A DNA stretch of 64,000 bases, from the NCBI GenBank assembly GCA_016235055.1, contig JACRMK010000066.1, positions 3,728 through 67,727 on the forward strand, read 5' to 3'. This DNA is from Chloroflexota bacterium. Its GTDB lineage: Bacteria > Chloroflexota > Anaerolineae > JACRMK01. Both the position numbers and the translations under genes were made by a program. The notes beneath the pieces are model-generated. The model saw only the letters and a program-made list of their open reading frames with translations, was not told the origin of the DNA and did no database searches. This document shows positions 5,092 through 59,942 of this stretch, one piece after another (position 1 is the first letter of the stretch; each line of letters starts with the position of its first letter).

Positions 5092-5280
5092 GGGTACTCC
5101 GTCTCCTTGTTTTGGTCCTCCACCCCACATGGCGCACTGTCCCGGGGTGCGGGACGAGGCGACAAGGATGCGTGGCGGTGTGAGAAATGATCTGCCGAAC
5201 GGTGATTATATAGATCAAGGGGCGAATCCCCAAATGGCGGCTAGTCGCTAGTTGCTAGTTGCTAGCAGCTAGTCGCGATT

Positions 5281-5308
5281 TTGACATCTGCCCGGTCACA
5301 GATATAAT
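5281..5308 (+). promoter_or_regulatory. sigma70-type promoter (TTGACA-N16-TATAAT) driving the tRNA
   Basis: Both hexamers are exact consensus. The -10 box ends ~20 nt upstream of the tRNA 5' end. Confidence 0.5.
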
Positions 5309-5327
5309 ACTTTTCGCATGTCCGCAT

Positions 5328-5401
5328 GCGCCCGTAGCTCAGTTGGATAGAGCGTTGGGTTGCGGACCCAAAGGCCACAGATTCGAGTTCTGTCGGGCGC
5401 A
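5328..5401 (+). tRNA. tRNA-Arg. Anticodon loop reads TTGCGGA, so the anticodon is GCG; this needs tRNAscan confirmation.
   Basis: It is 74 nt with a perfect 7-bp acceptor stem GCGCCCG/CGGGCGC, a D-arm GCTCAGTTGGATAGAGC (Arg-like), an anticodon stem TTGGG/CCCAA, and a T-arm ACAGA-TTCGAGT-TCTGT. There is no encoded CCA. Confidence 0.8.
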
Positions 5402-5603
5402 TCGCGCAGCGGCGCTACCGGTTTTCCGGTAGCGCCGTTTGCTTTCCCTCCGTTGCGACCTCGGATGCGCCGGTGCACATTCGTGTGCGTTCTCCCCCTG
5501 GATCGCCTTGCCTGCGGCTCGCCAGCCGGTGGTAGAATAACCACACTGGACGATCGCAGGTTTTCGGCGCCGCCGCACAATTACTGAAAAGGCCGGTGTC
5601 TCC

Positions 5604-7109: not shown

Positions 7110-8249
7110 TTATTTCTTGAACCACAACTCGTGAATGATATTGTCCGCGCCGCGGTACACGACGTGCTGCGAGTGGTCGCCTTCCCAGGCAAAGGCCACC
7201 GGATCGCTGTCGGCGGCCGGCGCGCCCGCCATGCGGTTGATCGCTGCGCCATACTTCCACGATCCGCCGGTGATCCCCTTCGAGAACCACAACTCGTGCA
7301 CCTGCTTGTCCTGCCCGCGATAGACGATGTGCATTGTCTTGTCGTTTTCCCAGGAATAGCCCCACGGCATGCCGTCGGCCAGTGGCGCGCCGGTCTTGGC
7401 GCTGATCGCGCCGCCGTTCTTCCACTGCCCGCCCGATGACTTGGTAAACCAGAGCTCGTTGATCTGGTTGTCCGGCGCCCGGTAGATCACGTGCTGGGTG
7501 TGGTCGGCTTCCCAGGCGAAGCCCATCGCATCGCTGGCCGCCCCTGAGCCGCCGGCCTTGCCGTTGATCGCGCCGCCGCGCTTCCACTCGCCGCCGCGCA
7601 TGCCTTTGGTGAACCAGAGTTCGTGGATATCGTTGTCGGTGCCGCGGTAGATGATGTGCTGCGAGTGGTCATGCTCCCAAACGAAGCCCGCGACGTCGCC
7701 CGCCACCGCGGGTGACGCGATCGTGGCGTTGATGGCGCCGCCATACTTCCACTGGCCGCCGCCGTCTTTGGTGAACCACAACTCGTGCACGTTGCCCTCG
7801 ACACCGCGGTAGACGACGTGCATCGTATGGTCGTCTTCCCACGTGAAGCCAAACGGGTCGCCTGCCGCAGCCGGCGCGCCGGCCTTCTGCGATACCGCGC
7901 CGCCGTACTGCCACTTCGGGTTGTTCCCGCCGGCCTTGAACCACAACTCGTGGATTTCGTTGTCCGTCCCGCGATAGACGACGTGCTGAGTCCCGTCATG
8001 TTCCCACGCGAAACCGTGCGGGTCGCCCGCAGCCGCCGGTGCGCCGGCAATCGTGCTGAGCGCGCCGCCATAGGTCCACTTCGGGTTGCGGCCACCCTTC
8101 TTGAACCACAGCTCGTGAATCTGGTTGTCCACGCCCTTATACACGACGTGCTGTGTGTGATCAGCCTCCCATGCATAGGCGCCGGGCTGTCCAGTCGCGG
8201 CCGGGCCGCCGGCCTCATGGCTGATCGGGTTGTGTTTCCAGTTGGGCAT
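7110..8249 (-). CDS. seven-bladed beta-propeller lectin-like protein (PLL/PVL-type repeats)
   Basis: Seven ~47-aa repeats each carry H(V/I)(V/I)YRGxDNxIHELWF plus a conserved W...G segment. No signal peptide is evident. A GGAGGAG RBS is present. Confidence 0.6.
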   Translation of the reverse strand: MPNWKHNPISHEAGGPAATGQPGAYAWEADHTQHVVYKGVDNQIHELWFKKGGRNPKWTYGGALSTIAGAPAAAGDPHGFAWEHDGTQHVVYRGTDNEIHELWFKAGGNNPKWQYGGAVSQKAGAPAAAGDPFGFTWEDDHTMHVVYRGVEGNVHELWFTKDGGGQWKYGGAINATIASPAVAGDVAGFVWEHDHSQHIIYRGTDNDIHELWFTKGMRGGEWKRGGAINGKAGGSGAASDAMGFAWEADHTQHVIYRAPDNQINELWFTKSSGGQWKNGGAISAKTGAPLADGMPWGYSWENDKTMHIVYRGQDKQVHELWFSKGITGGSWKYGAAINRMAGAPAADSDPVAFAWEGDHSQHVVYRGADNIIHELWFKK

Positions 8250-9233: not shown

Positions 9234-9341
9234 ACCACAATTGCAGCGGGCCGCCGATCACGCAAGGGCAAAACAGACGAGCCGCCGTCTTTAACCATGT
9301 GGGAACCGCTGCGACCTGGGCGGCGCGTCAACGCCGCTCAT

Positions 9342-9376
9342 AAAAAAAACGCCCGGCGTTTTTCGCCGGGCGTTTG
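9342..9376 (-). terminator. rho-independent terminator downstream of the GH2 gene
   Basis: On the minus strand, AAACGCCCGGCG-AAAAA-CGCCGGGCGTTT is followed by TTTTTTTAT. Confidence 0.7.
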
Positions 9377-9395
9377 AGTTCGTTCGAGCGCAACG

Positions 9396-18366: not shown

Positions 18367-18757
18367 AGGCGTAGTTTAGCAGAGGCGGCCGGTTTTGGCA
18401 CGCCAGAAGGTTTCGCTGAATGTATTCTACAATAGAGGAGCGTGTTCGTCACCGGCATCCGCCGGTGGGTGTCAGCGTCTTGCATACCCACGCCCAACCA
18501 TTGCTTAGGGCGTAGGGACAGGTCTCTGACCTGTTCACGTGTGCGTGGCGTCATAACGCGCTTCACAGACCTGTCTCTACCTCGGCATGACGTGGCGCCC
18601 GTAGGGGCGCATTGCACGCGCCTGGCGATCCCGTAGCAGATCGCAGGCCCGCGCCCACTTCAACTTGACGCCCCATCCGCGCGGCATACAATGGACGCGA
18701 AGCAGCAGCCTGCCCAGGACGCCCGGCACATATCCTGTTTCGCCCGAAAGGAACCGT

Positions 18758-20209
18758 ATGCCCCCCACCCGCACCCTCATCAAGGCTTCCCACATCATCG
18801 CCTATGACGGCAAGCGCCACCGCCACCTCAAGGACGGCGTCGTCGTGATCGAAGGCGACCGCATCATCCACGTCGGCAAAACGTGGACCGGCGCCGCCGA
18901 CGTGACGATCGACGCCGCCGGCCGCGTGGTGACGCCCGGCATGATCAACACACACACGCACCTGAGCGAGTCGCCGCTCGATCGCTCGCTCGTCGAGGAC
19001 ACCGGCAAGCGCAACTTCTACAACAGCGCACTATTCGATATGCTGCCCGGCCGCAGCGGAGCCGAGGACGAGGAGATGATGCAGATCTGCCTCGACTTCT
19101 CGTTCGCCGAACTCTTGCAGACCGGCACGACGACCGTCGTCGAGATGGGGCCAAAGGACCTGTACGACTACACCGCCGACACCGCCGCGCGCTACGGCGT
19201 CCGCGTTTACGTCGGCATGGGCTACCGTTCCGGCCGCTGGTACAGCGACGACGGCAAGGCGGTCAAGTATGAGTGGAACGAAGCGCAAGGCATACGCGAC
19301 ATGGACGACGGCGTCGCGTGGCTGGAGAAGAACCACGGCACGCGCGGCGGCCTGGTCAACGCCCTGCTGGCCCCGCGCCAGGTGGACACCTGCTCGGCAG
19401 CGCTGCTCAAGCGCACGCGCGAGGCGGCCAACCGGCTGAAGGCGCCGGTCACCCTGCACACCTCGCAGTCAGTGGTCGAGTTCCAGGAGATGATCCGCCG
19501 CAACGGCTGCACGCCGATCGAGTGGCTGCGCGACATCGGCTTCCTCGGCCCGGATGTATTGCTCGGCCATGCCATTATCATCAGCGGCCATTCGTGGGCC
19601 AACTACGCCGGCGACGACCTCGGCATCATGGCGTCAACCGGCGTGTCGGTCGCGCACGCGCCCTGGGTGTTCGTGCGGCGCGGCGTGACGATGGAGTCGT
19701 TCTATAAGTACATGCAGGCCGGCATCAACATGACGCTCGGCACCGACAGCGCGCCGCAGAACATGATCGAGTCGCTGCGCTACGCCAGCATCTTCGCCAA
19801 GCTGATCGAGCGGCAGACCGAGATCATGCGCGCCTCACACGTCTTCGACGCGGCGACGCTGGGCGGCGCGCGGGCGCTCGGCCGCGACGACCTCGGGCGG
19901 ATCGCCCCCGGCGCGAAGGCCGACCTGCTGATCTGGGAGGGCGCGAGCCACTCGATGGCCCCGCTGCGCGACCCGATCCGCAACATCGTCTATAATTCAC
20001 AGGCAAGCGACATCCGCACCACGATCGTCAATGGCCGCGTCGTCATGCATGACGGCGTGGTGGTCGGCGCGCCGGACATGCGGGCGCTGGCGCAGCGCAT
20101 GCAGGCTGCCGGCGAGCGCATGTGGCCGGCGATGCAGAAGGGCGACTGGGGCCACCGCACCGTCGACCAGATGTCGCCGATGAGCTACGCTGAGTGGGAC
20201 GGCGCGTGA
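18758..20209 (+). CDS. amidohydrolase-superfamily metal-dependent hydrolase (chlorohydrolase/aminohydrolase TRZ/ATZ-like)
   Basis: INTHTHLSESP (HxH metal site), a later HTSQS motif, and a C-terminal composite β-sandwich domain. The start ATG at 18758 is preceded by GAAAGGAA. Confidence 0.8.
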   Translation: MPPTRTLIKASHIIAYDGKRHRHLKDGVVVIEGDRIIHVGKTWTGAADVTIDAAGRVVTPGMINTHTHLSESPLDRSLVEDTGKRNFYNSALFDMLPGRSGAEDEEMMQICLDFSFAELLQTGTTTVVEMGPKDLYDYTADTAARYGVRVYVGMGYRSGRWYSDDGKAVKYEWNEAQGIRDMDDGVAWLEKNHGTRGGLVNALLAPRQVDTCSAALLKRTREAANRLKAPVTLHTSQSVVEFQEMIRRNGCTPIEWLRDIGFLGPDVLLGHAIIISGHSWANYAGDDLGIMASTGVSVAHAPWVFVRRGVTMESFYKYMQAGINMTLGTDSAPQNMIESLRYASIFAKLIERQTEIMRASHVFDAATLGGARALGRDDLGRIAPGAKADLLIWEGASHSMAPLRDPIRNIVYNSQASDIRTTIVNGRVVMHDGVVVGAPDMRALAQRMQAAGERMWPAMQKGDWGHRTVDQMSPMSYAEWDGA

Positions 20210-20210
20210 C

Positions 20211-20490
20211 AAGATGACACGATGACAAGATGACAAGATGACCGGATGACAAGGCGCCTTGGTGACAGGGTGACACAAGAGATCACAGAGTCGCCAGTCC
20301 AATGGCTTGTCATCCTGAGCGCGAAGGCAAGACGCTGTGCTTTTGGGGCGGTGCGCGCGCGAAGGATCTCGAATCTGTGATCTAATGTGACTAGGTGAGC
20401 ATCAGGCTATCGCTGGCGCCCCGTTTCTTGACGGGCATCGTCACCTTGTCATCCTGTCATCCTGTCATCTTGTCTTCTTGTCATTCTCTC
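20211..20490. repeat. composite intergenic element: long imperfect inverted repeats of GATGACAA/GG units flanking one GTCATCCTGAGCGCGAAGGC…GCGCGCGAAGGATCTCGAATCTG module
   Basis: The left arm at ~20211-20285 is the reverse complement of the right arm at ~20441-20487. The core module is at 20309-20378. All of this is seen directly. Confidence 0.6.
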
Positions 20491-20514
20491 GCCTTGCTCT
20501 AACATGGAGACCCG

Positions 20515-21960
20515 ATGGCCCCCGAACGCACACTGATCAAAGCATCGCACATCATCGCCTTTGACGGCAAACAGCACCGCTATCTGAAGGACGGCGTCGT
20601 CGTCTATGAGGGCGACAGCATCATCCACGTCGGCCGGAAATTCGACGGCACGCTTGACCACCTGATCGACGCGACCGGCAAGCTCGTGACGCCCGGCCTC
20701 ATCGACACACACATTCACATGGGCGGCTCGCCGCTCGACAAATCGTTCATCGAGGACCACGGCAAGCGCAACTTCTTCAACAGCGGCCTGTTCGAGATGC
20801 TGCCGGCGCGCGGCGCGGCGCAGGACCAGGCCGCCTCCGAGTGCTGCGTCGAGTTCTCGATGATGGAACTGCTGCACACCGGCACGACGACCGCGCTGGA
20901 GATGGGCAACGTGCACGACTACACGGCGGCGCAGGCGGCGCGCTTCGGCGTGCGCGCCTACATCGGGCCGATGTACCGCTCCGGCCGCTGGTACACCGAC
21001 GACGGCAAGACCGTCAAGTACCACTGGGACGAGGCGGCGGGCACGGCGGCGTTCGAGCGCGCGGTCAAGTGGATCGAGGAGAACGACGGCACGCACGGCG
21101 GGCTGGTCAAGGGCTTCCTCTCACCGGCGCAGGTCGACACGTGCAGCGAGGCGCTGCTGAAGCGCACGCGCGAGGCGGCCACCCGCATGCGCGTGCCGGT
21201 GCAGATGCACACCTCGCAGTCGGTCAACGAGTTTCGCGAGATGGTCAACCGGCACGGCCTGTCGCCGATCGAGTGGCTGGAGAGCATCGGCTTCCTCGGC
21301 CCCGACGTCTCGCTCGGGCACGCGATCATCGTGGCGGGCGGCGCGTGGGCGCAGTTTGCCGGCGACGACATCGCGATCATGGCGCGGCACGGCGTCTCGG
21401 TGGCGCACGCGCCGTGGGTGTTCGCGCGGCGCGGCATCGCTATGGAGTCGTTCGCGCGCTACCTGAAGGCGGGCATCAACATGACGCTCGGCACGGACAC
21501 CGCGCCGCAGTCGATGATCGAGGCGATGAAGTTCGCGGCCGTGATCAGCAAGATCATGGACCGCCAGACCGAAATCGCCACCGCCGCCGATATGTTCAAC
21601 GCGGCGACGCTCGGCGGCGCGCGCGCCGTCGGCCGCGACGACCTCGGGCGCATCAGCGCCGGGGCCAAGGCCGACATCGTCATCTGGGAGGCCGAAAGCC
21701 TCTGGATGTCGCCGCTGCGCGATCCGGCCAAGAACATCGTCTACAACGCGCAGGCCGAGGACGTCAAGACGGTTATCGTCAACGGGCGCGTCGTCATGCG
21801 CGACGGCGTCATCCCGAACGCGCCGAGCATCCAGCAGATGGCGCAGCGCCTGCAGGAAGCCGGCGGGCGCATGTGGCGCAACATCCCGGCCGGCGACTGG
21901 GCCGAGCGCGAAGCCGACGAACTAACGCCGCAGAGCTTTGACTACTGGGACGCCGCCTAA
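20515..21960 (+). CDS. amidohydrolase-superfamily hydrolase, tandem paralog of 18758-20209
   Basis: It is alignable end to end with the upstream gene (MAPERTLIKASHIIAFDGK… versus MPPTRTLIKASHIIAYDGK…) and has IDTHIHMGGSP. Confidence 0.8.
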   Translation: MAPERTLIKASHIIAFDGKQHRYLKDGVVVYEGDSIIHVGRKFDGTLDHLIDATGKLVTPGLIDTHIHMGGSPLDKSFIEDHGKRNFFNSGLFEMLPARGAAQDQAASECCVEFSMMELLHTGTTTALEMGNVHDYTAAQAARFGVRAYIGPMYRSGRWYTDDGKTVKYHWDEAAGTAAFERAVKWIEENDGTHGGLVKGFLSPAQVDTCSEALLKRTREAATRMRVPVQMHTSQSVNEFREMVNRHGLSPIEWLESIGFLGPDVSLGHAIIVAGGAWAQFAGDDIAIMARHGVSVAHAPWVFARRGIAMESFARYLKAGINMTLGTDTAPQSMIEAMKFAAVISKIMDRQTEIATAADMFNAATLGGARAVGRDDLGRISAGAKADIVIWEAESLWMSPLRDPAKNIVYNAQAEDVKTVIVNGRVVMRDGVIPNAPSIQQMAQRLQEAGGRMWRNIPAGDWAEREADELTPQSFDYWDAA

Positions 21961-21965
21961 TGGAA

Positions 21966-22066
21966 CCTCCAAATCCCAAACACCAAATCCCAAACGCTTC
22001 AAGCGTCGCGCTCTGCTCGCCGGGATCGGTGTTTTTGGGGCTTGGGATTTGAGATTTGGGATTTTT
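21966..22066. repeat. long imperfect hairpin of CCAAATCCCAAAC-type units
   Basis: CCAAATCCCAAACACCAAATCCCAAAC … GGGGCTTGGGATTTGAGATTTGGGATT. The arms are reverse-complementary. Confidence 0.5.
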
Positions 22067-24441: not shown

Positions 24442-24532
24442 GATTGACTGCATAATAGAGTACGAGGGCAAGCATGGCGACCAAGAGCGAAAGCTGGCCT
24501 TGCGACAAGTTGCATAACACATTGGCGAAAAA

Positions 24533-24826
24533 ATGAAGACCCTGGATGAAATCAAGAGGGATTTGCGAGAGCAACGCGGCCTACTCGCCGAGCGGTACGG
24601 GGTCGCGGTCGTCGGCATCTTCGGATCACAGGTTCGCGGTGAAGCGAGGACTGACAGTGATGTGGACCTCCTGGCGGACATCGTGCGTCCCATCAGCCTG
24701 TTCGAACTGGTTGGCGCAGAGCTGTATTTGAGCGACCTGCTGGGCATGAAGGTTGACCTGGTGCCGAAGCGGAGCCTGCGGGCAGAACTGCGAGACATCA
24801 TTATCAACGAGGCGGTGGCGCTGTGA
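24533..24826 (+). CDS. nucleotidyltransferase (MNT-type antitoxin of the HepT/MNT module)
   Basis: GSQVRGEARTDSDVDLL is the Pol-beta-type NTase motif. The stop overlaps the HepT start (GTGA). Confidence 0.75.
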   Translation: MKTLDEIKRDLREQRGLLAERYGVAVVGIFGSQVRGEARTDSDVDLLADIVRPISLFELVGAELYLSDLLGMKVDLVPKRSLRAELRDIIINEAVAL

Positions 24827-25177
24827 ACCGCAAGATTTCGCTTTACTTACGAGACATTCTCGAGAACATGCGGAATACGGAGGAGTTCGTGACCGGCATG
24901 CCCAGGGAGCGCTTCGAGCGCGACAAAAAGACGCTGTATGCCGTTCTGCGCTCGATTGAAGTTATCGGCGAGGCGACCAAGCACGTTCCTCAAGAAATCA
25001 GGGATCGCTATCCGGATATCCCTTTGGAGGGAAATGGCGGGTATGCGTGACAAGCTGATTCATGATTACATTGCCGTGGACGTGGAGACGGTGTGGTTGG
25101 TCATCGCAGATCGCATACCGGCGATCATGCCGCGCGTGGAGCAGGTTCTGATCGACGTACAACGAACAGAGAAATAG
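24823..25177 (+). pseudogene. HepT (DUF86/HEPN) toxin gene disrupted by a +1 frameshift
   Basis: The N-part (…IGEATKHVPQEIRDRYPDIP) lies in frame 1. The C-part (WREMAGMRDKLIHDYIAVDVETVWLV…) lies in another frame. An extra T in the CCTTTGG run at ~25022-25026 separates them. Confidence 0.65.
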
Positions 25178-26562: not shown

Positions 26563-26780
26563 TCTACCGCAGAGGACGCGGAGAACGCAGAAAAGGGGCT
26601 AGCATTGTCGTAACGCGTGCGCGCCTGAAAAGGGTTGTCATGCTGAGCGCGGAGGCAAGACCGGCGGCGTACAACCCGCCGGTGGCGCGAAGCATCTTGT
26701 ATGCCGCAATTCAGATGCTTCGCGCGTGAGGCGTGCCATAGGCCGATCGTGCGACCTTCGCGTTCAGCATGACATTTCTA
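26563..26780. repeat. palindromic copy of the GTCATCCTGAGCG-type module family (variant GTCATGCTGAGCGCGGAGGC … GCGCGAAGCATCTTG … CAGATGCTTCGCGC … inverted partial copy)
   Basis: A purine-rich half-arm CCGCAGAGGACGCGGAGAACGCAGAAAAGG precedes it. An inverted partial copy ATGTCATGCTGAACGCGAAGG lies ~120 bp downstream. Confidence 0.5.
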
Positions 26781-27157: not shown

Positions 27158-27200
27158 AAAGGCCCTCCGGGTTGTCGAAACCCAGAGGGCCTTTCTTGTG
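27158..27200 (+). terminator. hairpin terminator after the DUF2442-like gene
   Basis: A 10-bp stem AAAGGCCCTC/GAGGGCCTTT is followed by CTTGTGATT. Confidence 0.5.
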
Positions 27201-27209
27201 ATTCAGAAC

Positions 27210-27286
27210 AAAACACCAAGACACAAAGGCACAAAGAAATCAGATTGGTTTTCCTTTGTGTCTCTGTGCCTCTGTGTCTCTGTGGT
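27210..27286. repeat. CACAAAG-unit palindromic hairpin (family member)
   Basis: CACCAAGACACAAAGGCACAAAGAAA … TTTGTGTCTCTGTGCCTCTGTGTCTCTGTGGTG. It lies between convergent genes. Confidence 0.55.
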
Positions 27287-27301
27287 GAGTTTCCGAGTGC
27301 C

Positions 27302-28447
27302 TTATCCCGGCAGCGGCGCGTCGTGGCCGCGCGCGGCCATGCGCTCCATGCCCGTCACCTTGCCGTCCACCACCAGCAGCGCGTAGTCGTGCAGATTCAC
27401 CGTCGGGCAGACGTGGCGCGGCACCAGGTAGAGGTTCTCGCCGATCTCCGGCAGCTTCTCGCCTTCCGGCAAGTCGATCGGCAGGTGCTCCTCGCTGGGA
27501 CCGGCCGGCCTCCACGCGCCGTGCCCGATCACCGCGCAGGTCGGCACGCCCGCGTCGGCCGAGACCGCCTTGTGCCCGCCGTCGGCCGTCACGCGCGTCG
27601 GCGTCGGCCGGCTGATGACCGCCGCCATCACGACCGCGGCCGGCTTATAGTCGAAGCCAAGCGACTGCGGCAGGACCTCCATCGTCGTTGTATCGTGGAA
27701 ACCGACCGTGCCCGGCGAGATGCGGTGCACGAACGTTGCGTCGCCGAACGGCTTGTACGAGAGCGAGACCGGGAACGCCGGTGTGCCCGCCGTGATGACT
27801 TCCGGAATTGTGATGCCCGACCGCTCCAGCCCGGCGACGAGACCCAGCAGCGCGTCGTAGTCGGCATGCGCCAGCTTTTCGCGTTCGGCCATATCCTTCT
27901 GGTTGCGGTGCCCGTCGTACCAGTGCAGGCCGCGAAACTCCAATCCGGCGTTGCGTACCGCACGGATGATCGGCTCCAGTTGGCCGCGCAGGCCGACCGC
28001 CAGGCCGCTGCGATTCATGCCCGGGTTCACGTCGATGAACACGCCGACGTGCGCGCCGCGCCACTGCGCGACCTGCGCCTCCGATTCGAGCAGCACGCTA
28101 ATGCGCGTCTGCGGATACTGCTCGGCCAGCGCGCGCACGCGCCGCGCATTGGCGCCGACGACGGCAAACGAGAGCAGCGCGTCGGGCGCACCGACCTTGC
28201 ACAGCGTCTCCAGTTCGAGCGTCGTCGCGCACTTGAACTGCTGGATGCCGAGGCCCAGGTACTGCTTCATCACCGAGCCGAGCTTGACCGTCTTGACGTG
28301 CGGGCGCCAGCGGTTGACGTCGCCGTCGCAGAACTTCAGCGTGACCTTGACGTTGTGCTCGACCAGCTTCGGGTAGATCAGCAACGCGGGCGTGGCCAAC
28401 TCGGCCTCGTTGGCGACGCGATATTCGTTGAGCGGAATGTCCGGCAT
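27302..28447 (-). CDS. type III PLP-dependent enzyme, alanine racemase N-domain family (D-serine dehydratase/D-threonine aldolase-like)
   Basis: PHVKTVK (PLP-lysine region) and the DSD1/D-TA-like overall pattern. The start is at MPDIPL with a GGAGAG RBS and is frame-consistent. Confidence 0.7.
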   Translation of the reverse strand: MPDIPLNEYRVANEAELATPALLIYPKLVEHNVKVTLKFCDGDVNRWRPHVKTVKLGSVMKQYLGLGIQQFKCATTLELETLCKVGAPDALLSFAVVGANARRVRALAEQYPQTRISVLLESEAQVAQWRGAHVGVFIDVNPGMNRSGLAVGLRGQLEPIIRAVRNAGLEFRGLHWYDGHRNQKDMAEREKLAHADYDALLGLVAGLERSGITIPEVITAGTPAFPVSLSYKPFGDATFVHRISPGTVGFHDTTTMEVLPQSLGFDYKPAAVVMAAVISRPTPTRVTADGGHKAVSADAGVPTCAVIGHGAWRPAGPSEEHLPIDLPEGEKLPEIGENLYLVPRHVCPTVNLHDYALLVVDGKVTGMERMAARGHDAPLPG

Positions 28448-28735
28448 GGAACTCTCCTGTGGTTGGATGGATGCGCCTAATATAGCGGCAAATGCGCGCG
28501 GCGGCAAGACGCTGAAGCACTCGGGGAATACCTGCCAAGTCGGACCCGTGCGTATATGGTAGGGGCCGACCTGCGTGTCGGCCCGCAGCGTGTCAGGCGG
28601 GCGCACACGCCGGTGCGCCCCTACGTGATCCTGACAGTTCTTGGGTGTACCCCAAGCGCCCATGCACGCGCCGCGCCATCCGTTTCAGGTATAATGGGCG
28701 GGATACCACGGCTGATTCCAAATAGAGGAGACTAT

Positions 28736-30513: not shown

Positions 30514-30523
30514 AGTTCAAACA

Positions 30524-30612
30524 AACCCAACACAAAGACACGGAGACACAAAGAAAAACCTGTGTTAAGGTGCTCTTGGTGCCTTTGTGACTTTGTGTTG
30601 GGTGTTGGGTTT
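30524..30612. repeat. CACAAAG-unit palindromic hairpin (family member)
   Basis: CCCAACACAAAGACACGGAGACACAAAGAAAAACC … GGTGCCTTTGTGACTTTGTGTTGGGTGTTGGG. It lies between convergent genes. Confidence 0.55.
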
Positions 30613-34396: not shown

Positions 34397-34528
34397 AAGC
34401 GCGCATGGTCGGGGCGCACAGGTTGGGCAAACATGTTGGGGCGCACGGCCGTGCGCCCCTATCGCCCATGTGTATGTGGGGCATCGTGTTCTGTGTGTGA
34501 TTTCGTGTTCCTTCGTGGAGAAGATCAA

Positions 34529-35129: not shown

Positions 35130-35370
35130 CGCCATCCTGAGCGTGAAGGCAGCACCGCGACTTTCAGCCGCGTCACGCGCGCGAAGGAGCCGAGCACCAC
35201 GCGCCGGGTTGTCATCCTGAGCGCGAAAGCAGCACGACACACTTACCAACACGCCATGCGCGCGAAGGACCTAAAATCGTCGCAGTCAAGCACCACACTG
35301 AGTAGAACTGGTTTGCAGCCATGCGCAGCTACTACGTCTACATCATGACCAACCCGCCGCGCGCCATCGT
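35130..35370. repeat. two tandem partial copies of the mini-element end. The second copy includes the GIY-YIG 5' UTR and the first ~17 codons.
   Basis: Module copies start at 35130 and 35211. A stub ATGCGCAGCTACTACGTCTACATCATGACCAACCCGCCG at 35321 diverges at the next module. Confidence 0.6.
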
Positions 35371-35878
35371 GTCATCCTGAGCGCGAAGGCAACACCTTGT
35401 TTTACACATCCGCCACGCGCGCGAAGGACCTAAAATCTTCTCAGCCAAGCACCACACTGAGTAGAATTAGCTTGCAGCCATGCGCAACTACTACGTCTAC
35501 ATTATGACCAACCCGCCGCATACGACGCTGTATGTTGGTATGACGAACGACCTGAAGCGCCGGATCAGCGAGCACAAGGGCAAACTCATCAAGGGTTATA
35601 CGAACGCGTACAACGCGACCTACCTGGTTCACTACGAGATTGCCGAGGACGCTGCAACGGCGATCGCGCGCGAGAAACAGATCAAAAGGTGGCTGCGAGC
35701 AAAGAAGATCGCCCTGATCGAATCGAACAATCCGGAGTGGAAGGATTTGAGCGTCGAGTGGCTGGACGATGAAGGCTGAGCCCGTTACGGGAAGATTCGG
35801 CCATTCGCAGATTTCAGGTCCTTCGCGCGCGAGGCGTTCTTGAACGGCAGCGCGTTGCCTTCGCGCTCAGGATGACAG
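35371..35878. mobile_element. ~510-bp mini-element: ~65-75-bp terminal inverted repeats (GTCATCCTGAGCGCGAAGGC-N27-CGCGCGAAGGACCTAAAATC) flanking a GIY-YIG nuclease gene
   Basis: The left end is at 35371-35445. The right end at ~35815-35878 is its reverse complement, with a different 27-nt internal segment. Confidence 0.55.
35480..35779 (+). CDS. GIY-YIG nuclease family protein (COG2827/YhbQ-like URI domain, ~99 aa)
   Basis: YYVYIMTNPPHTTLYVGMTNDLKRRISEH is the GIY…YIG…R…E signature. Confidence 0.85.
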   Translation: MRNYYVYIMTNPPHTTLYVGMTNDLKRRISEHKGKLIKGYTNAYNATYLVHYEIAEDAATAIAREKQIKRWLRAKKIALIESNNPEWKDLSVEWLDDEG

Positions 35879-42130: not shown

Positions 42131-42166
42131 GCACCGGGCAGATATTTGTGTCGGATGCGGCGAGTT

Positions 42167-42412
42167 CTATACCGCAAGCGCCATCGGACGTGTCGTCATC
42201 ACATCGGTTGCAGACAACCGCCGCACCTGCTCGGGCGCGAGCGTCAAAAGCGCGCGCGTGGAGCCATCGGGATTGACAAACTCAACATCGTAGGCCCGCG
42301 TCGGGACGGTGTAGATCTCGACCACGGTGCCTATATCGCCCGCCAGCACGCCATCCGCCGGAGCGCTTATCGTAGCCACAATCACTTCAAGCAGCGCTAT
42401 TTGGTCGCTCAT
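42167..42412 (-). CDS. DUF4926-like small protein
   Basis: …GDIGTVVEIYTVPTRAYDVEFVNPDGSTRALLTLAPEQV matches the DUF4926 pattern. Confidence 0.6.
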   Translation of the reverse strand: MSDQIALLEVIVATISAPADGVLAGDIGTVVEIYTVPTRAYDVEFVNPDGSTRALLTLAPEQVRRLSATDVMTTRPMALAV

Positions 42413-42771
42413 TGCTCCCTCTCATCTGACCGCGGTGCCGGTTCAATCGTCACCAGTTCGGCGTAGCCATTATCCCCTCGAAATATCCACACGACCGTCA
42501 CCTGGCGCACGGCTCCATTGGGTCCGGCTAAGGGTCCTGTGATCGTAAACTTACGCCCAAATAGTGATGGGCTACCCGGCTCGGCGCCGCGCGTAATCAA
42601 CTGCGATCGAATGTCATCAGCGAGTTCGTGCCACCGATCTCTCGAATAGCCCATCGCACGAAAGAATGCAGCCTTGTGTCTGCCGACCGCATGCTCGGGA
42701 TTGAGAACGTAATCCCTCAATTTCCGAGAGTCAATAACTGCGTTTTCGGCGTTCGGCAGTAGTTCGGGCAC
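42409..42771 (-). CDS. DUF6883-like protein (usual upstream partner of DUF4926)
   Basis: …SRKLRDYVLNPEHAVGRHKAAFFRAMGY… Its stop overlaps the DUF4926-like start (ATGA). Confidence 0.55.
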   Translation of the reverse strand: MPELLPNAENAVIDSRKLRDYVLNPEHAVGRHKAAFFRAMGYSRDRWHELADDIRSQLITRGAEPGSPSLFGRKFTITGPLAGPNGAVRQVTVVWIFRGDNGYAELVTIEPAPRSDEREQ

Positions 42772-43712: not shown

Positions 43713-44182
43713 GGCAGGTCCGTTGCGGTTGATCGGGGCTTCTTGTAGAACAGCACCATGCGCTCGACTTCGAGCACAATCGCGCCGTGCTGGTTGCGGC
43801 CGAAGTGGCGCAGGCGCACCACGCCGCAGTCGGGCCGCGAGCGCGACTCGCGCTTCTCGACGACCTCGCTGGAGACGTAGAGCGTGTCGCCGTGGAAGAC
43901 CGGGTGCGGGTAAACGACCTTCTCGTACGACAGGTTCGCGACGATCGTGCCCTCGGTCAGGTCGGGCACCGTCATGCCGACCGCCAGGCCGAGCGTGAAG
44001 ATGCCGTTCATGATGCGGCGGCCAAACGGCGTGCGCGCGGCGAAGTCCTCATTGAGGTGCAACGGCTGCGTGTTCATCGTCAGCGACGAGAACAGCACGT
44101 TGTCCATCTCGGAGACGGTGCGCCCCATCGCGTGTTGGAACGCGTCGCCGACCGTCAGTTCGTCAAAGTATTTGCCGGGCAT
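43709..44182 (-). CDS. MaoC-like (R)-specific enoyl-CoA hydratase/dehydratase (single hotdog)
   Basis: …HLNEDFAARTPFGRRIMNGIFTLGL… gives the hotdog fold. It shares an ATGA overlap with the CitE-like gene. Confidence 0.8.
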   Translation of the reverse strand: MPGKYFDELTVGDAFQHAMGRTVSEMDNVLFSSLTMNTQPLHLNEDFAARTPFGRRIMNGIFTLGLAVGMTVPDLTEGTIVANLSYEKVVYPHPVFHGDTLYVSSEVVEKRESRSRPDCGVVRLRHFGRNQHGAIVLEVERMVLFYKKPRSTATDLP

Positions 44183-44520
44183 GGTTCAGTGCGCCCTTTC
44201 AGCAAAACCGTTTGGAACACGAATACCACGAAAGAACGCGAATGACACGAAACGGCGCGCCCCTTTCGCGTGCTTCGCGGCATCTCGTGTCGCTCGTGGT
44301 CCAATGCTTCTTCCCATCGCGTGCTGGAACGCGTCGCCGACCGCCAGTTCGTCAAAGGATTTGATGGGCATGGTTCAGTGCGCCCCTTCAGCAAAACCGT
44401 TTGGAACATGATTATCACGAAAGAACATGAAGACCACGAAACGAGATCAGCCGGTGGGACTCGTTCGCGTAATCGCTTGGAACCGAAACCCGCGATAGGA
44501 CGCGAATGACACGAAGTTGT
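44140..44520. repeat. direct ~125-bp duplication of the MaoC gene start plus the adjacent CACGAAA-unit hairpin, with a further degenerate hairpin copy
   Basis: Copy 1 is at 44140-44240 and copy 2 at 44320-44440 at ~90% identity. The stub ORF 44186..44371 begins MPIKSFDELAVGDAFQHAMGR, matching the MaoC N-terminus. Confidence 0.6.
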
Positions 44521-44543
44521 ATAACATACAGATGGCAGTAGCA

Positions 44544-46238
44544 TTAGACTCCAAGAAAGGAATTGAGCTTTTCAACCAAGAGACGATCTCTGGCTTGCAA
44601 GAACCTGTCGAAGTTCTTCACATGCCATAGCTTTCTGTCCAGTGGAACACACTGCTTCTCCAACTCCGTTCGATCGTAAGTAAGTCGGTCAAGATAGGTT
44701 GCCGGCTCTTCCATACTTATATCCAGATTTGTGTCCGCACGGATGATTGTGAGGTTGCCGAATATATTAATGGTCCCAGATTGATATCCGTGCCTACTGA
44801 GGAGTGCGCGTGGAAAGAAGTGATGAACCTGCAATTTCGCATTCTGTCCAATCACACTTCCATCTAGTGGCGTGCTATTGACCCAGTCGCTTCCGTTTTG
44901 GTTGCGAAGCATCGAGATGAACAATGCCATGATGGAGCCACTACGGCTGTTAGACTTTGACCGGAAATAACTTGCCCAGTTTGCAAATTGGATCCATCGA
45001 AACACGCCTATTTCCGGGCGTTTTCGCACTCAAGTGGGCAGATTGTTTCCGGTCAAACCCTTAGTATCAAAATCATCGACACTGAGTTTGCGAAGATAAC
45101 GGCGCGTTATGTCCCACAACTGATCAACAGATGCATTGGCTTCAAGTTTTCGTAGGATCTGATCAAGCTCAGAATACACTGAGCCGCTAAAGTATGTGCG
45201 AACGCCAGCAAGAAGAAGCCACTTACGAGCAACTTCACGCTCGGCCTTTGTCCACCCGCGTTTTTGCGCTTTGATATACACGAGTGGGATCAAAGCGTTA
45301 AATGATGGAACCCATGCCCCTGAATCCCATCTTACGGTCCCAGTCACAAAATCGATGACATCCTCCAAGCCACGAACAGTCCTGTGCCACGAGGCTCTGA
45401 TATCGCTTGGGCTTGAGTCGCCAAAGAGCTTTTCAGGCTTGCTGAAATTCATTCGATTTGTATGCACAGCCGCGAGACATTGCATAAGAAATGAGCGGCT
45501 GAATTGAAAATGCGGTCGATACTTGCTAAGAACATCAGACATCTCTTTGGAGGTCAGCCCCTCAACGCGATTGGCTAACTCAGCAAGGACAAGATCGCTC
45601 TTGTTCAGTTTGCGGCCAGTCGAATTGAACCGTATGAACAACTCGGTTGCATCTCTATAGTCGTCCGATTCATATTCGATGACGCTTATCACATAGTTGA
45701 GAACGTTTTGAAGTTGTGCGAGCATCTTGCGCACGGTCTCAGCATGCCGATCCTCATAATAGTCGTCTTCTTCCAGACGGTGCAGGTGCGCCGTGACGTC
45801 GAAATCCTTCGACAACACATCTGCGACGGATACATACCAAGGATCTGAGTCGTCTAGAAACTTGTCCCAATAAAACCGGCTATCTTCACGTTCACCATCA
45901 GTCCACAAATTGAACATTAAAGGATACTCGTCGCAAGCGTCTCGCACCTGTGAAACCGCCGTAAGCCGCTGTTGTCCATCGAGCAAATAGCCATAGAATC
46001 CGTCGAGCTTGCTGGGGGTCCGCCGACGTTTCTGTCCGTGGAACGCCTTACCTTTCACCTCGGTTTTGGGTTTCCAAACTAGCATTTGGCCAATCGGCAG
46101 GCCGCGATAGAGCGAATCAAAGAGGAGTTTGACGCTCTGCTTAGGCCACACAAAATCTCGTTGAATTTCTGGCAACTGAAGACGTTCGGAATCTTTGTAG
46201 TCAAGAAGTTCACAAAGTGTTTTGGTTGTCAGTCCCAT
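44544..46238 (-). pseudogene. GmrSD-family type IV restriction endonuclease gene (DUF262 plus DUF1524-like HNH) interrupted by an in-frame TGA at 45030-45032, lying in a low-GC island
   Basis: N-part: LPEIQRDFVW and LLDGQQRL (DUF262). C-part: VHHFFPRALL…N motif region (DUF1524-like). The two track ORFs abut in the same frame. GC here is ~45-50% against ~68% elsewhere. Confidence 0.65.
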
Positions 46239-46310
46239 TGTTTCGCCCCTTGAATGTGAAATGGCACGGCATTCGAGACTATTGCCAAGCCTATCTGAGT
46301 GCCCGAAATA

Positions 46311-46565: not shown

Positions 46566-46956
46566 GCCCTCCCGGTAAACGGTGCGATGCCGTTGGCAAG
46601 CAGTATACGCCGTTTTGCGCCGGCGCTCAAACTATTACGCCGTTCGTGGGGCTACCAGCAGAGTGCCGGTAGCCCTCAAAATATCGAGACCCGAAGGGTT
46701 TCGCCGGCACGGCCTTATCGCGATTGGTCCCTCAGGAACCCTTCGGGTCTGCCTAAACCGAAGCGCGCGGGAAGCGCCGTTTTGTCGGCGCTGCCATTTG
46801 GTGCTATTCTATGGCTAGTGAAGGCTCGCGGTCGTGGGCAGTTGCGCCACGACCGTTTTCTGTGCCTGCCAACCCGGACGGGTCAGAGACCCGTCCCTAC
46901 GCGCTGTTCACCGTTCACTGTTCACTGTCTTCTGACGACTGGCTACTGAGGCTCCC

Positions 46957-48800: not shown

Positions 48801-48832
48801 GAAATCCCAACTCCCAATGTCCAAATCCCAAA
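48801..48832. repeat. CCAAATCCCAAAC-type unit tract (half-hairpin) after typA
   Basis: ATCCCAACTCCCAATGTCCAAATCCCAAAC. Confidence 0.4.
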
Positions 48833-48871
48833 CAGCCCTCCGGGTCAACCCCGCGAGGGCTGTTGTTCTTT
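48833..48871 (+). terminator. intrinsic terminator after typA
   Basis: Stem CAGCCCTC/GAGGGCTG with a 14-nt loop, followed by TTGTTCTTT. Confidence 0.6.
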
Positions 48872-49260
48872 AGCCTGTCATTCTGAGAATATCCATACGG
48901 CCCCACGGTATGCGATGCGGCAGAAACTTAAGCATGGCCTATGCGAGTCGTCATTCCGGCGAAAGCCGGAATCCAGGCGCGCGCATCACGGCCTGTAAGC
49001 GCGCCAGATGTCGGCGTGGATGCCGGCTAACGACATGCCGGCATGACGAATTGGAGTGTGCGATCATGCCCTCAGTGGCGATGAAGTTTCTGAGCAGCGC
49101 AAAAGCATGGCCTCCTGAATCCGGTGCACTTCGCGCGCGAAGGATCTCGAATCTGCAACGGCCATGGCATCTCCGCACCTCGCTGCGCCACAATCGAGAT
49201 GCTTCGCGCATGAAACACACCTGATTCTCTCTGTGCCTCCGTGCCTCTGTGGTTTGCGCT
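48870..49260. repeat. ~390-bp block of degenerate GTCAT(T/C)C(T/C)GAG / CGCGCGAAGGATCTCGAATCTG / GATGCTTCGCGC modules
   Basis: GTCATTCTGAGAAT…, GTCGTCATTCCGGCGAAAGCCGGAATCC, an inverted CACTCCAATTCGTCATGCC, and CTTCGCGCGCGAAGGATCTCGAATCTGCAACGG (near-identical to 20351-20378). Confidence 0.5.
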
Positions 49261-49703: not shown

Positions 49704-49776
49704 TCAACACAAAGCCACAAAGGCACAAAGAAATCTGAAATGTTCTTGGTGACTTTGTGTCTTGGTGTTGGCTTTT
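49704..49776. repeat. CACAAAG-unit palindromic hairpin (family member)
   Basis: CAACACAAAGCCACAAAGGCACAAAGAAATC … TTGGTGACTTTGTGTCTTGGTGTTGG. Confidence 0.55.
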
Positions 49777-57506: not shown

Positions 57507-57574
57507 ACCGCAGAGAACGCAAAGAGCGCAGAGAAGAACCTTTCTATCTTTGCGTGCTCTGCGCTCTCTGCGGT
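57507..57574. repeat. palindromic hairpin, G/C-substituted variant of the CACAAAG-unit family
   Basis: ACCGCAGAGAACGCAAAGAGCGCAGAGAAGAA … TCTTTGCGTGCTCTGCGCTCTCTGCGGT. Confidence 0.55.
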
Positions 57575-57602: not shown

Positions 57603-58532
57603 ATGCCGCGTGACACCTATTCGCAGCCGCATCTGCCGGATCCGGTGCTGGAGCCAGCCGTGGTGCTGGAACTGGCGCGCTGGTTTGAGCCGCACGTGGA
57701 GGCGGTGACCGCTGTGGACGAGACCGGCGGCGAGGCGCGCACCTACCTGATCGACGACCGGTTGGTGTTCAAGACGCAGCGGCCGCACCGCCTGCGCCCG
57801 CGCACCAGCCTGGCGAAAGAGGTCTTCTTCCTTCAACACATCGCGCAGCACGCGCCCGATCTGCCGGTGCCGCGCGCGCTTGGATACGGGCACGCCGAGG
57901 CGCACATCGAGTACAGCCTGCTGACACGCATGCCGGGCGCGGCGCTGCTGCGCACTACGCTCTCTCTCGCGCAGCGGGTGGAGGTGGCGCGTGCGCTCGG
58001 TCGCACGCTGCGGCGTGTGCACCAGTTGCCGCAGTTGCCGCTGGCCGAGAGCGGCTTGTTGCCCGTCGACCGCGATGCGGTCGACGTGCGCGCCCGCTTT
58101 CGCGAGTTGCTCGAGGAAAGCGCCGCGCGCATCGAATTGGAGGGCAAACCGTGGACGCTGCCGCTCGCACCGCGCGCCGTCGCGGGGCGGGCGCTGGCCG
58201 CGCTGCCCGAAGAGCTTGAGCGCGCAGCGCTACACTCCAACCCGTGGCACGAGCACACGTTCGTCAATCCGGACAGCGGTACGTACATCGGCCTGATCGA
58301 CTTCGGTGACGCGTACATCAGTCATCCGTCGTTCGATCTGCGCCGCTGGCGCTCGACGGAGGAGCGCGCTGCGCTGATCAGCGGCTACACGGAAACCGGA
58401 CCCGTCAGCGCGGACTTCCGGCAGGCATGGCGCGTCGCCCAGATCGCCGGCAGTCTCGCCGCGATCGCCAACGCGCCCGACCTCGCGCCCGCTGCGCTGG
58501 CGGAGTTGCCGCGCTTGCTGTCCAGCTTGTAG
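57603..58532 (+). CDS. phosphotransferase-family kinase (APH/choline kinase fold)
   Basis: LHSNPWHEHTFV (HxDxxxxN-like catalytic loop) and IDFGDAYISHPSFDL (DFG-like). An AAGGGGGAG RBS is present. Confidence 0.7.
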   Translation: MPRDTYSQPHLPDPVLEPAVVLELARWFEPHVEAVTAVDETGGEARTYLIDDRLVFKTQRPHRLRPRTSLAKEVFFLQHIAQHAPDLPVPRALGYGHAEAHIEYSLLTRMPGAALLRTTLSLAQRVEVARALGRTLRRVHQLPQLPLAESGLLPVDRDAVDVRARFRELLEESAARIELEGKPWTLPLAPRAVAGRALAALPEELERAALHSNPWHEHTFVNPDSGTYIGLIDFGDAYISHPSFDLRRWRSTEERAALISGYTETGPVSADFRQAWRVAQIAGSLAAIANAPDLAPAALAELPRLLSSL

Positions 58533-58579
58533 GGGCGACCCTCGCGGTCGCCCGATTCGGGCGCGGGCAAGCCGCGCCC

Positions 58580-59852: not shown

Positions 59853-59867
59853 GAAAAACCTTCTTAT

Positions 59868-59937
59868 CCGCGAATAACGCGAATGAACGCGAATAGAAAC
59901 AGCGCGTTGTAGTCGTGAAGATTCGCGTTATTCGCGG
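59868..59937. repeat. GCGAATA-unit palindromic hairpin (family member)
   Basis: CCGCGAATAACGCGAATGAACGCGAATAG … ATTCGCGTTATTCGCGG. Confidence 0.55.
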
Positions 59938-59942
59938 ATGGT

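Follow-up and report, generated by a model that had tools for sequence, protein, structure and literature searches.

Several classes of short intergenic repeats come close to the elements described here. REP elements are 20-40 bp long, tagged with GTAG or CGTC and associated with RAYT; roles in termination and mRNA stabilisation have been proposed for them, and they turn over between relatives (PMC3733652, PMC3116915). Among heptamer repeats, the TAACTGA units of Beggiatoaceae and cyanobacteria are nearly all direct repeats, with one inverted repeat reported (PMC4679880). The GGGAATC repeats of Xanthomonas include 70-75 pairs that converge on opposite strands and are capable of forming stem-loops (Rehm et al. 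2015, PMC4692102). In these heptamers the type of repeat is kept between species and its length varies, and the G-rich heptamers of Nostoc are of the form GGGGA(T/C)T (PMC4692102). Work on clade-specific 3' stem-loops is ongoing (PMC13613805).

The stretch of DNA analysed here, which is 64 kb long with about 66% G+C (the window), holds about 17 arrays of short tandem units and 4-5 copies of a CACAAAG type. Like REP and BIME sequences, the elements are high-copy, intergenic, imperfect palindromes that often lie just 3' of genes. In contrast to REPs, they are 60-130 bp long, above the REP size range, with arms of about 25 nt made of three tandem units, and their ends read (A/G)CCAC...GTGG(T/C) without a GTAG or CGTC head. 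No RAYT gene was seen among the open reading frames scanned in the 64-kb window. With the STRR and TAACTGA heptamers (PMC4679880), the elements share intergenic tandem units of about 7 nt, several families per genome and some arrays that end before start codons. A CTGAATA array that abuts a start codon in a related contig (L012) and a (CTCTGTG)4 array on an Anabaena cylindrica plasmid add to this likeness. Unlike STRRs, most of the arrays are short, with about three units, and are paired as the inverted arms of hairpins close to stop codons; their carriers are Chloroflexota, Acidobacteriota and probably Bacteroidota. Their periods of 7-10 nt and intergenic arrays are those of heptamer SSRs, and they include convergent stem-loop pairs as in Xanthomonas. 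The G-run type of Xanthomonas and Nostoc, however, fits only the GGGATTT/AAATCCC loci of the window (1805, 21966 and 48801; loci are named by their first position), the only ones with G3 runs. The 27210, CACAAAG, CGCAGAG and CGCGAAT types have no G3 runs, and several unrelated-looking unit families share one architecture here, unlike in Xanthomonas and Nostoc.

Two further classes invite comparison. Bidirectional intrinsic terminators, to the extent that PMC13613805 presents them from Ju et al. 2019, resemble the elements in being A-rich 5' and U-rich 3' of the hairpin, in having the same layout on either strand and in lying past stop codons. Measured against that account, the stems in the window are long, A/U-rich and interrupted by periodic mismatches, the U-run is usually missing, and some copies lie in a riboswitch leader. 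Palindromic MITEs (Correia, ERIC and RUP-type) are likewise dispersed in copies of about 100 bp that form long hairpins near gene ends. In contrast, no conserved loop, clear target-site duplication or parent IS was found for the elements analysed here; their outer flanks and loops are locus-specific and the middle layer is conserved. The flanks are palindromic and of variable length, often with TA at both ends and with no consistent duplication.

The elements may be regarded as belonging to a class of short-tandem-repeat palindromes that is widespread between genes and resembles REP elements and cyanobacterial STRR heptamers. The reading preferred here, to which a probability of about one half is given, is that these REP/STRR-like palindromes evolve in concert and would serve as hairpins of the 3'-end or terminator type. 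If it holds, one modular hairpin design marks a large fraction of gene ends in several poorly studied phyla, and the design could aid the annotation of transcript ends in MAGs. About a quarter of the genes in the window carry such an element.

Hairpins at gene ends in the window

A preliminary description of this DNA had listed ten loci as long hairpins built from tandem units. The loci were folded as RNA on both strands and compared with 200 dinucleotide shuffles per test (Table 1). At the clear hairpin loci, namely 27210, 30524, 42084 (short and asymmetric), 49704, 57507, 59868, 21966 and 44205-44305, z was about -3.0 to -8.3 on both strands, and 0-2 of the 200 shuffles folded as well. The same loci rank among the best inverted repeats of the window, with an arm complementarity of 82-87% in the repeat finder. 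Non-random hairpins that fold far better than shuffled sequence are therefore present at 7-8 of the ten loci, and the listing needs amending for the rest: only one array each is present at 1805 and 48801, and the 44190-44520 locus is a composite. In composition, the 1805 array is of the G-quadruplex type.

Table 1. Arrays, hairpins and an adjoining terminator-like site in the window; z values are against dinucleotide shuffles, one for each strand.
Position	Feature	Strand	Folding or basis	Context
1805-1878	Single G-rich array (TTGGGA, TTGGGGG)		z +1.06, -0.70; no hairpin	C/A-rich on sense strand of frr (ribosome recycling factor), gene end 1881
5240-5276	GCTAGTC x5 array	+		Directly upstream of promoter-like TTGACA...TATAAT and tRNA-Arg
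20207-20496	Nested palindrome			Arrays 20207-20253 paired with 20440-20496
21966-22066	Hairpin, AAATCCC and GGGATTT arms, 48-nt centre		Folding, inverted-repeat finder	Centre carries its own GC stem and T-run (22018-22040)
26565-26592	Single CGCAGAG-like arm	+		9 nt past aldo/keto reductase stop
27158-27200	Canonical GC-rich stem GGCCCTC...GAGGGCC, then TTTCTTGT		Read from sequence	
27210-27288	Main hairpin		dG -33.9 (+), -37.5 (-); z -4.9, -6.6	14 nt beyond stop of D-Ser-dehydratase-like gene (- strand, 27302-28447; Pfam)
30524-30612	CACAAAG-type hairpin		z -6.1, -6.8; inverted-repeat finder	Occupies 103-nt gap between convergent methyltransferase-like (+) and MFS transporter (-) genes
34480-34522	T-rich TTCGTGT-type array	+		Directly upstream of + strand start codon
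42084-42135	Asymmetric CACAAAG-type hairpin		z -3.0, -4.75	Three units left, ~1.5 right; - strand gives 19-pair stem, then tail UUGGUGUUGU
44205-44305	Hairpin, CACGAAA/CGCGAAT units		z -2.65, -4.0	Upstream of MaoC-like gene start (44182, - strand)
44395-44520	Duplicated left arm and further CGCGAAT/CACGAA array		z -0.4, -1.5; no stable hairpin	Duplicated left arm included in ~125-bp direct duplication (44130-44255 and 44322-44447)
46904-46928	CTGTTCA array	+		29 nt upstream of BipA start codon
48801-48875	Single AAATCCC arm (48801-48832), then canonical terminator hairpin and T-run	+		Arm begins 3 nt past BipA/TypA stop codon
49229-49255	Single CTCTGTG arm			CACAGAG on sense strand of glyoxalase gene ending 49266
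49704-49776	CACAAAG-type hairpin		RNA folding	Between ArfB-like gene (stop 49804) and glyoxalase gene (start 49685), both - strand
57507-57574	Hairpin, 9-nt unit CGCAGAGAA		z -7.9, -8.3	ABC transporter stop 9 nt before; next start codon 29 nt after
59866-59939	Hairpin, CGCGAATAA units		z -7.7, -7.0; inverted-repeat finder	Between LysM/membrane protein gene (stop 59943) and AhpC/TSA gene (start 59852)

The plan of the 27210 type is three CAC-N-AAG-N units, AAA, a loop and the complement. At 27210 itself, the 5' arm reads ACACCAAG-ACACAAAG-GCACAAAG-AAA, the loop is about 15 nt, and the 3' arm reads CCTTTGTG-TCTCTGTG-CCTCTGTG-TCTCTGTG. The adjoining site at 27158-27200 is a separate one that resembles a conventional terminator. 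In the contig search, the only relatives of the protein encoded by the D-Ser-dehydratase-like gene were from Bacteroidota, at 30-36% identity. The 57507 hairpin recurs letter for letter in a Logan assembly made independently and is thus no assembly artefact. The adjacent ABC transporter is a 100% match to a 'MAG: Chloroflexi bacterium' protein, whose relatives are Chloroflexota; the host is accordingly a Chloroflexota MAG, and a Burkholderia-like host, suggested by base composition, was rejected.

The elements had been placed at the ends of many genes, and this is borne out in the window: an array starts 0-28 nt past the stop codon at 13 gene 3' ends, a count that is the authors' own reading of an approximate self-trained gene map. 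In co-directional pairs of genes, the hairpin takes up the space from the stop codon to the next ribosome-binding site. Conventional terminators with a GC stem and a T-run are present separately, for example at 27158-27200, 48833-48875 and 9340-9380, and two of them directly abut arrays. The neighbouring genes are of the ordinary housekeeping kind, among them frr, bipA, an arfB-like gene, amidohydrolases and transporters.

Six sites were added to the ten listed loci with Tandem Repeats Finder and by reading through every spacer: 5240, 20207, 26565, 34480, 46904 and 49229. In the nested palindrome at 20207, the outer arms are (TGACAAGA)x6 and (TCTTGTCA-type)x5, and a TGA stop codon falls within the first TGACAAGA unit. 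Its interior holds an inverted repeat (20274-20293 and 20370-20389), and its centre is a copy of another repeat (20309-20329). In the relative L012, the unit of the CTGTTCA array (GTGAACA/TTCACTG) recurs in a nested hairpin, where it makes up the outer arms. Non-coding DNA, which makes up 11.4% of the window, holds 15 arrays of period 7, 8 or 10 that are AT-rich and have 3-10 copies; coding DNA likewise holds 15, but these are GC-rich with about two copies each. The array at 22034-22064 is counted as non-coding because the true gene start lies downstream.

A dispersed family with a shared unit skeleton

An identical 27-nt arm, ACACCAAGACACAAAGGCACAAAGAAA, is common to 27210 and 42084, with close variants at 49704 and 30524. 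The same order of unit variants is kept in this arm, indicating dispersed copies instead of independent inventions. An exact 18-mer of the 27210 type, CACAAAGRCACAAAGAAA, occurs in at least 120 metagenome stretches, on contigs with a GC of 0.30-0.69 among the matches listed; some of the low-GC matches are probably due to chance. The core has a partner within 200 nt downstream in 86 of 128 elements among the matches listed. In a position logo of the matches listed, the searched core is preceded by a third unit, C-A-C-N-A-A-G, beyond which the signal decays, so that the typical element has three units per arm.

The carriers are taxonomically diverse. L012, a relative with 66% protein identity and 56% G+C, bears elements like those of the window: one hairpin of CACAAAG/CGCGAAG units and one of CGCAGAG units, arrays that abut start codons, and a nested pair whose outer arms are GTGAACA and whose inner arms are CGCGAAGA. 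Carrier contigs of a second group (L043-like) are placed in Acidobacteriota, as the oxidoreductase beside the element shares 87% identity with a protein of a Terriglobia MAG and many matches are to Pyrinomonadaceae. Another contig (L093) is inferred to be Bacteroidota-like from protein similarity, its hybrid two-component regulator being 64% identical to a Phocaeicola coprocola protein. About one-third of 29 matches in viral contigs look like real hairpins. Among the BLAST matches to plasmids, only that of A. cylindrica was informative, where the array follows the stop codon of a P-type ATPase gene. The (GCACAAAG/GTACAAAG)x12 array of a Burkholderia plasmid and the (ACACAAAA)n array beside parA in Erwinia, found in the same search, were set aside as one-armed tandem arrays of another kind.

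Rfam covariance models assigned the elements of the window and seven related contigs to no family at gathering or relaxed thresholds. The only match to overlap a hairpin of the window (30523-30605) was to a miRNA precursor, at chance level and far below the gathering score. The other matches in the window were tRNA and unrelated sub-threshold ones, and the seven related contigs gave two riboswitches and similar sub-threshold matches. In the papers covered by an exact-string search, none of the unit sequences was found.

The unit families CACAAAG, CGCAGAG, CGCAAAG, CGCGAAG, CGCGAATTA, CGCGGATTA and CGCAGATTA occur as inverted pairs in the carrier contigs and are all built on a C-R-C-N-R-A-K skeleton with a spacer of one or two bases. 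In the window, the units given with this bipartite CRC-N-RAK skeleton are CACAAAG, CGCAGAG, CGCGAAT, CACGAAA and CCCAAAT. Less similar units, GTGAACA, CAGAAGC, GATTGCG and TGATTAA, are found in the same contigs. The unexpected point is that the three-unit CRC-N-RAK design is common to distant phyla. This raises the question of why the same unit positions are fixed across them, for which a shared recognition factor or copying mechanism and horizontal spread are possible answers. The units were also considered as stop-codon traps and as sites like the DnaA box, and both ideas were dropped: no stop codon occurs in a CACAAAG unit, and the ends, TTAACCACA, do not fit the TTATCCACA consensus.

Pairing was assessed in a column-by-column alignment of 28 hairpins from four unit families. 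Standard pairs fill 90.4% of the cells, changes are seen on both sides in 14 of 25 pairs, and there is covariation in the closing base pairs. Covariation from arm to arm is measurable: its score is 0.222 compared to 0.117 in shuffles, none of 500 of which reach 0.222, and it lies above every slid control. Within the units, C1, C3, A6 and G7 are invariant across families and three phyla. The N4 columns, in contrast, are unpaired in 12, 11 and 15 of the 28 sequences (43-54%). The unit sequence and the stem are thus both conserved, with one position per unit free to mismatch, and the conserved skeleton indicates that sequence is constrained as well as structure. The CGCAGAG hairpin of L012 (13956-14020) does align column for column with the CACAAAG type. 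The same had been claimed of 57507, described as a base-for-base, G/C-substituted version of the consensus of 27210, 42084 and 49704, but its period is 9 nt and that of the CACAAAG type is 8 nt, so the two are not equivalent base for base.

The CACAAAG family is strongly polar, with the purine- and A-rich arm almost always 5' and the T-rich arm 3'. Among the matches listed, 66 cases have at least three T-units downstream and 6 have them upstream, and pairing by Tandem Repeats Finder gives a polarity of 51 to 1. All nine hairpins of the window have the purine arm first in the authors' reading. The other unit families are less biased, with 15 A-first, 6 T-first and 4 neutral. Because the purine arm is 5' and the T-rich arm is 3', RNA from either strand has a U-rich 3' arm, an arrangement like that of a bidirectional terminator.

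The position relative to genes was examined in 62 metagenome contigs, where context calls from longest ORFs were unreliable and were therefore replaced by gene calls from self-trained codon models. Spacers with a hairpin were co-directional in 28 cases, convergent in 2 and divergent in 5, against a baseline of 198, 50 and 52. Divergent spacers (5/35) are thus close to their 17% baseline, and convergent spacers are not enriched. Within the co-directional spacers, 24 of the 28 hairpins lie within 60 nt of the upstream stop codon and 15 of the 28 within 60 nt of the downstream start codon, and where the spacer is long, the hairpin remains near the stop codon in 7 cases versus 2 (authors' tallies). 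These distances indicate that the preference is for gene 3' ends and not for convergent spacers; of the two positions anticipated in the preliminary description, only the former is favored in the metagenome contigs.

Proposed concerted change, and turnover at single slots

The differences between families are not distributed as single pairs. The A-to-G differences that separate CACAAAG from CGCAGAG hit all units, and both arms together. At 27210, one whole arm has shifted to CTCTGTG and the other, CACAAAG, is unchanged, leaving three uncompensated A.C mismatches on the + strand, which are G.U pairs on the - strand. The earlier observation that the two arms match within each locus therefore stands only in part. 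In the contigs L033, L079 and L132, near-identical copies differ in the number of units between arms, and a pair at 99% identity has one uncompensated base difference. Changes that affect whole units and whole arms are compatible both with concerted evolution by slippage and template switching and with selection on RNA pairing. Since the pattern is what concerted evolution produces, it cannot be read as independent compensatory substitutions. Under the preferred reading, the elements would be a clear example of concerted change that mimics RNA covariation and would call for caution in covariation-based RNA discovery.

Turnover can be followed at one acidobacterial slot, in L043, where an oxidoreductase stop codon is followed by the palindrome, a promoter (TTGACA..TATACT), a c-di-AMP riboswitch and a permease. 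A 99% relative retains the element. In a relative at 87% protein identity, the slot holds another palindrome with (TGATTAA)3 arms, followed by the same conserved promoter. In an 86% relative the slot holds a further, entirely different repeat, and the spacer is missing in an 80% relative. In the lineage of the window, the 57507 hairpin is absent in an 86% relative, with an IS element nearby. Conservation in relatives had been proposed as a check on the elements; at the L043 slot, the 87% relative has kept a palindrome, but one of another sequence.

Possible roles and competing explanations

In the preferred reading of the elements as 3'-end hairpins that evolve in concert, each arm consists of about three 7-9-nt units. 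The concerted evolution would take place in the DNA: slippage of units would make each arm uniform, and switching of strand or template, or some other copying process, would move changes between the arms. Slippage and transfer from arm to arm are proposed to account both for variation that looks compensatory and for the rapid replacement of elements at slots. Once the upstream gene is transcribed, the arms would fold into a long, interrupted, A/U-rich helix that serves as the hairpin of the transcript 3' end. The U-rich 3' arm would reinforce termination in either direction, and the helix would block 3' exonucleases. The effect would be modest, not absolute, and independent of orientation.

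Evidence on termination points both ways. The elements lie just past the stop codon and upstream of the next promoter. On the - strand, 42084 is the top terminator-like site in a simple scan, which also flags part of 59921-59939; overall, terminator-like counts in the promoter and terminator scan equal those of shuffles, that is, chance level. The stems of the window are A/U-rich with loops of 12-20 nt, and the U-run is absent after most of the full-length hairpins in the alignment. The acidobacterial copies are layered. Outermost is a palindromic flank that differs from locus to locus; then come four CACAAAG units, a stem (GGCCGC or GCCGGC) whose AT-rich loop varies, and TTTCTTTGTG with the complement of the units. 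Judged by its sequence, the centre would be a textbook terminator core. In contig L060, a TPP riboswitch with its own terminator is followed by nested CGCAGAG and CACAAAG palindromes that end 10 nt before the thiS start codon, with thiG downstream. Read-through transcripts must cross these palindromes, which are therefore not strong terminators there. A role as terminator or stabiliser is nevertheless plausible.

Some of the same observations would also be expected if the elements were by-products or selfish DNA with no host function, formed either by slippage beside terminator hairpins together with template switching or by the insertion of MITE-like elements that home in on terminator hairpins. 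Nested, onion-like palindromes occur in the window (20207-20496), L012 (7800-7963), L060 and L153, and together with the locus-specific palindromic flanks of the acidobacterial copies they seem to point to growth or insertion at hairpins at the DNA level. The swapping of the element at one slot between relatives, the variation in unit number among near-identical copies, the position of arrays beside canonical terminators and the tolerance of copies within a riboswitch leader are all in keeping with such an origin. Evidence for insertion itself is uneven: no linked transposase and no clear target duplication were seen, and signs of target-site duplication or of ungapped outward extension of the palindromes were suggestive but inconsistent. 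However, neutral slippage predicts neither the four unit positions that are invariant in three phyla nor the strong polarity of the CACAAAG family, and the covarying closing pairs and the tight spacing to stop codons also speak against an absence of function. This explanation is considered unlikely, though it ranks first among the rivals.

It was originally proposed that structure and not sequence is selected, such that pairing is maintained by classical compensatory substitutions in an RNA of otherwise free sequence, acting as a bidirectional terminator or stabiliser. The stable folds on both strands, the covariation above shuffled and slid controls and the persistence of a hairpin at a slot despite replacement of its sequence agree with this view. 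Nevertheless, it is improbable as it stands, given that the unit skeleton is conserved across phyla, the 27-nt arm is shared, N4 is so often unpaired, the A.C positions at 27210 are uncompensated, the changes are unit-wide instead of single pairs, and arrays at 1805, 48801 and 49229 have a single arm. Moreover, the two strands fold alike: sense and antisense folding energies did not differ in 38 co-directional contexts (p=0.80), giving no folding advantage to the sense strand, and the comparison of G.U with A.C and of sense with antisense energy gave no signal of strand-specific RNA selection.

The units might instead be tandem candidate sites for an abundant single-strand-binding protein, such as a cold-shock protein, that would tune read-through or translation by opening or closing the hairpin. 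Fixed unit positions next to a free N4 and N8 suggest sequence-specific recognition, and single T-rich arms lie just before start codons. Bs-CspB prefers the heptamer GTCTTTG/T (PMC1904285), which is contained in the T-arm unit GTCTTTGT, and the period of 7-9 nt matches the footprint of one CSP per heptamer (PMC4679880). This evidence is one of resemblance, however, and the match to the heptamer is restricted to the T-arm of the CACAAAG family; the CTCTGCG, ATTCGCG, ATTTGGG and TTCACTG families do not match it, and no CSP gene was found linked to the elements. The proposal is accordingly rated as quite improbable. The same low standing is given to its broadest form, in which cross-phylum CRC-N-RAK palindromes would be read by a conserved single-strand-binding factor and so constitute protein-tunable terminators or antiterminators, hundreds per genome. 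Cold-shock proteins would be the best lead for this factor because the T-arm unit contains the CspB heptamer. The elements that such a reading spans are those of Chloroflexota, Acidobacteriota, Bacteroidota-like contigs and cyanobacterial arrays.

Least credible of all is a role in DNA, as cruciform or hairpin sites for recombination or integration or as sites for nucleoid proteins, since its support consists of two anecdotes (a GmrSD island with a direct duplication of about 125 bp that abuts the 44205 hairpin, and the IS element in the equivalent slot of the 86%-identity relative), a period of 8 bp is out of step with the helical repeat, and the placement by stop codons points to transcripts. 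A separate palindrome family, of the GTAGGGGCGCAC type, is also present in the window.

Repeat families in the spacers

A second dispersed repeat of about 70 nt, GTCATCCTGAGCGCGAAGGCA...GCGCGCGAAGGA(T/C)CT, occurs in six copies in the window, against a chance expectation of 0.01. Four of the six flank an ORF of 99 amino acids with a GIY-YIG nuclease domain (35480-35779). The nested palindrome at 20207-20496 has another copy at its centre, and the unit of its right arm, TGTCATCC, resembles the first bases of that copy. The palindrome lies in the 305-nt spacer between two amidohydrolase genes, 18758-20209 and 20515-21960, which are tandem paralogues.

Some spacers contain GC-rich palindromes of the GTAGGGGCGCAC type. 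They resemble GTAG-headed REPs and make up a family distinct from the tandem-unit hairpins, the gene-end inverted repeats with arms of 7-9-nt units. Because the window holds 20 matches to this pattern vs 11 expected, only the intergenic palindromic matches are convincing. A further repeat type, GTCATTCCGGCGAAAGCCGGAATCCAGG, is common to the window (48940-48975) and to a relative at 86% identity (L010, 2375-2410). In the same relative, the slot of the window hairpin at 57507 is occupied by a GTCATTCCGGCGAAAGCCGGAATCCAGG repeat.

Coordinates of repeat copies, protein domains and tRNA
Feature	Position	Strand	Location
Second dispersed repeat	20309-20329		window
Second dispersed repeat	26637-26657		window
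Second dispersed repeat	35131-35151		window
Second dispersed repeat	35211-35231		window
Second dispersed repeat	35371-35391		window
Second dispersed repeat	35856-35876	-	window
GTAGGGGCGCAC-type palindrome	18601-18612		window spacer
GTAGGGGCGCAC-type palindrome	28559-28624		window spacer
GTAGGGGCGCAC-type palindrome	34408-34462		window spacer
GTAGGGGCGCAC-type palindrome	58529-58583		window spacer
GmrSD_C, weak match	44544-45029	-	window
GmrSD_N	45030-46238	-	window
tRNA-Arg, anticodon GCG	5327-5403		window

Palindromes beside riboswitches in related contigs

In the related contig L060 (1071-1365), a TPP riboswitch is followed by its own terminator, nested CGCAGAG and CACAAAG palindromes, thiS and thiG, with the palindromes ending 10 nt 5' of the thiS start codon. 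This order indicates that tandem-unit palindromes are tolerated in a riboswitch-controlled leader. In acidobacterial contigs, a gene for an amino-acid permease has a c-di-AMP riboswitch of the ydaO type on its upstream side (riboswitch at 6351-6491 of L043, minus strand, and in the equivalent regions of L139 and L143). The riboswitch and promoter are kept among these relatives, and the palindrome just 5' of the riboswitch differs between them by replacement.

G-run and tRNA-adjacent arrays

The G-run arrays at 1805-1878, directly 3' of frr, and at 22034-22064 consist of the units TTGGGA, TTGGGGG and TTTGGGA. Their composition would allow G-quadruplexes to form, and in this they resemble the heptamers of Xanthomonas and Nostoc (PMC4692102). 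In the region 5240-5403, a promoter-like site close to the TTGACA/TATAAT consensus stands before the tRNA-Arg gene, and an array of five GCTAGTC units lies immediately 5' of that site.

GmrSD island, toxin-antitoxin-like genes and a repeat protein

A low-GC island (about 50%) at 44320-46300 encodes a split GmrSD-type restriction endonuclease. The island's insertion point adjoins the MaoC-like gene at that gene's 5' end, and a direct duplication of about 125 bp (44130-44255 and 44322-44447) takes in both the start of the gene and the left arm of the hairpin. Small toxin-antitoxin-like genes are found at 24500-25177 and 42146-42771. The former holds a HepT-like ribonuclease fragment (24998-25177), which may be disrupted, since the region around it has no clean long ORF. 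In the latter, the gene for a toxin-antitoxin-like DUF6883 protein (42409-42771, minus strand) has its 3' side towards the hairpin at 42084. The minus-strand gene at 7110-8249 contains two blocks of 165-bp tandem repeats (7397-8130; 2.4 and 2.0 copies, with matches of about 75%), which suggests that its putative product is a protein of repeats of about 55 residues.
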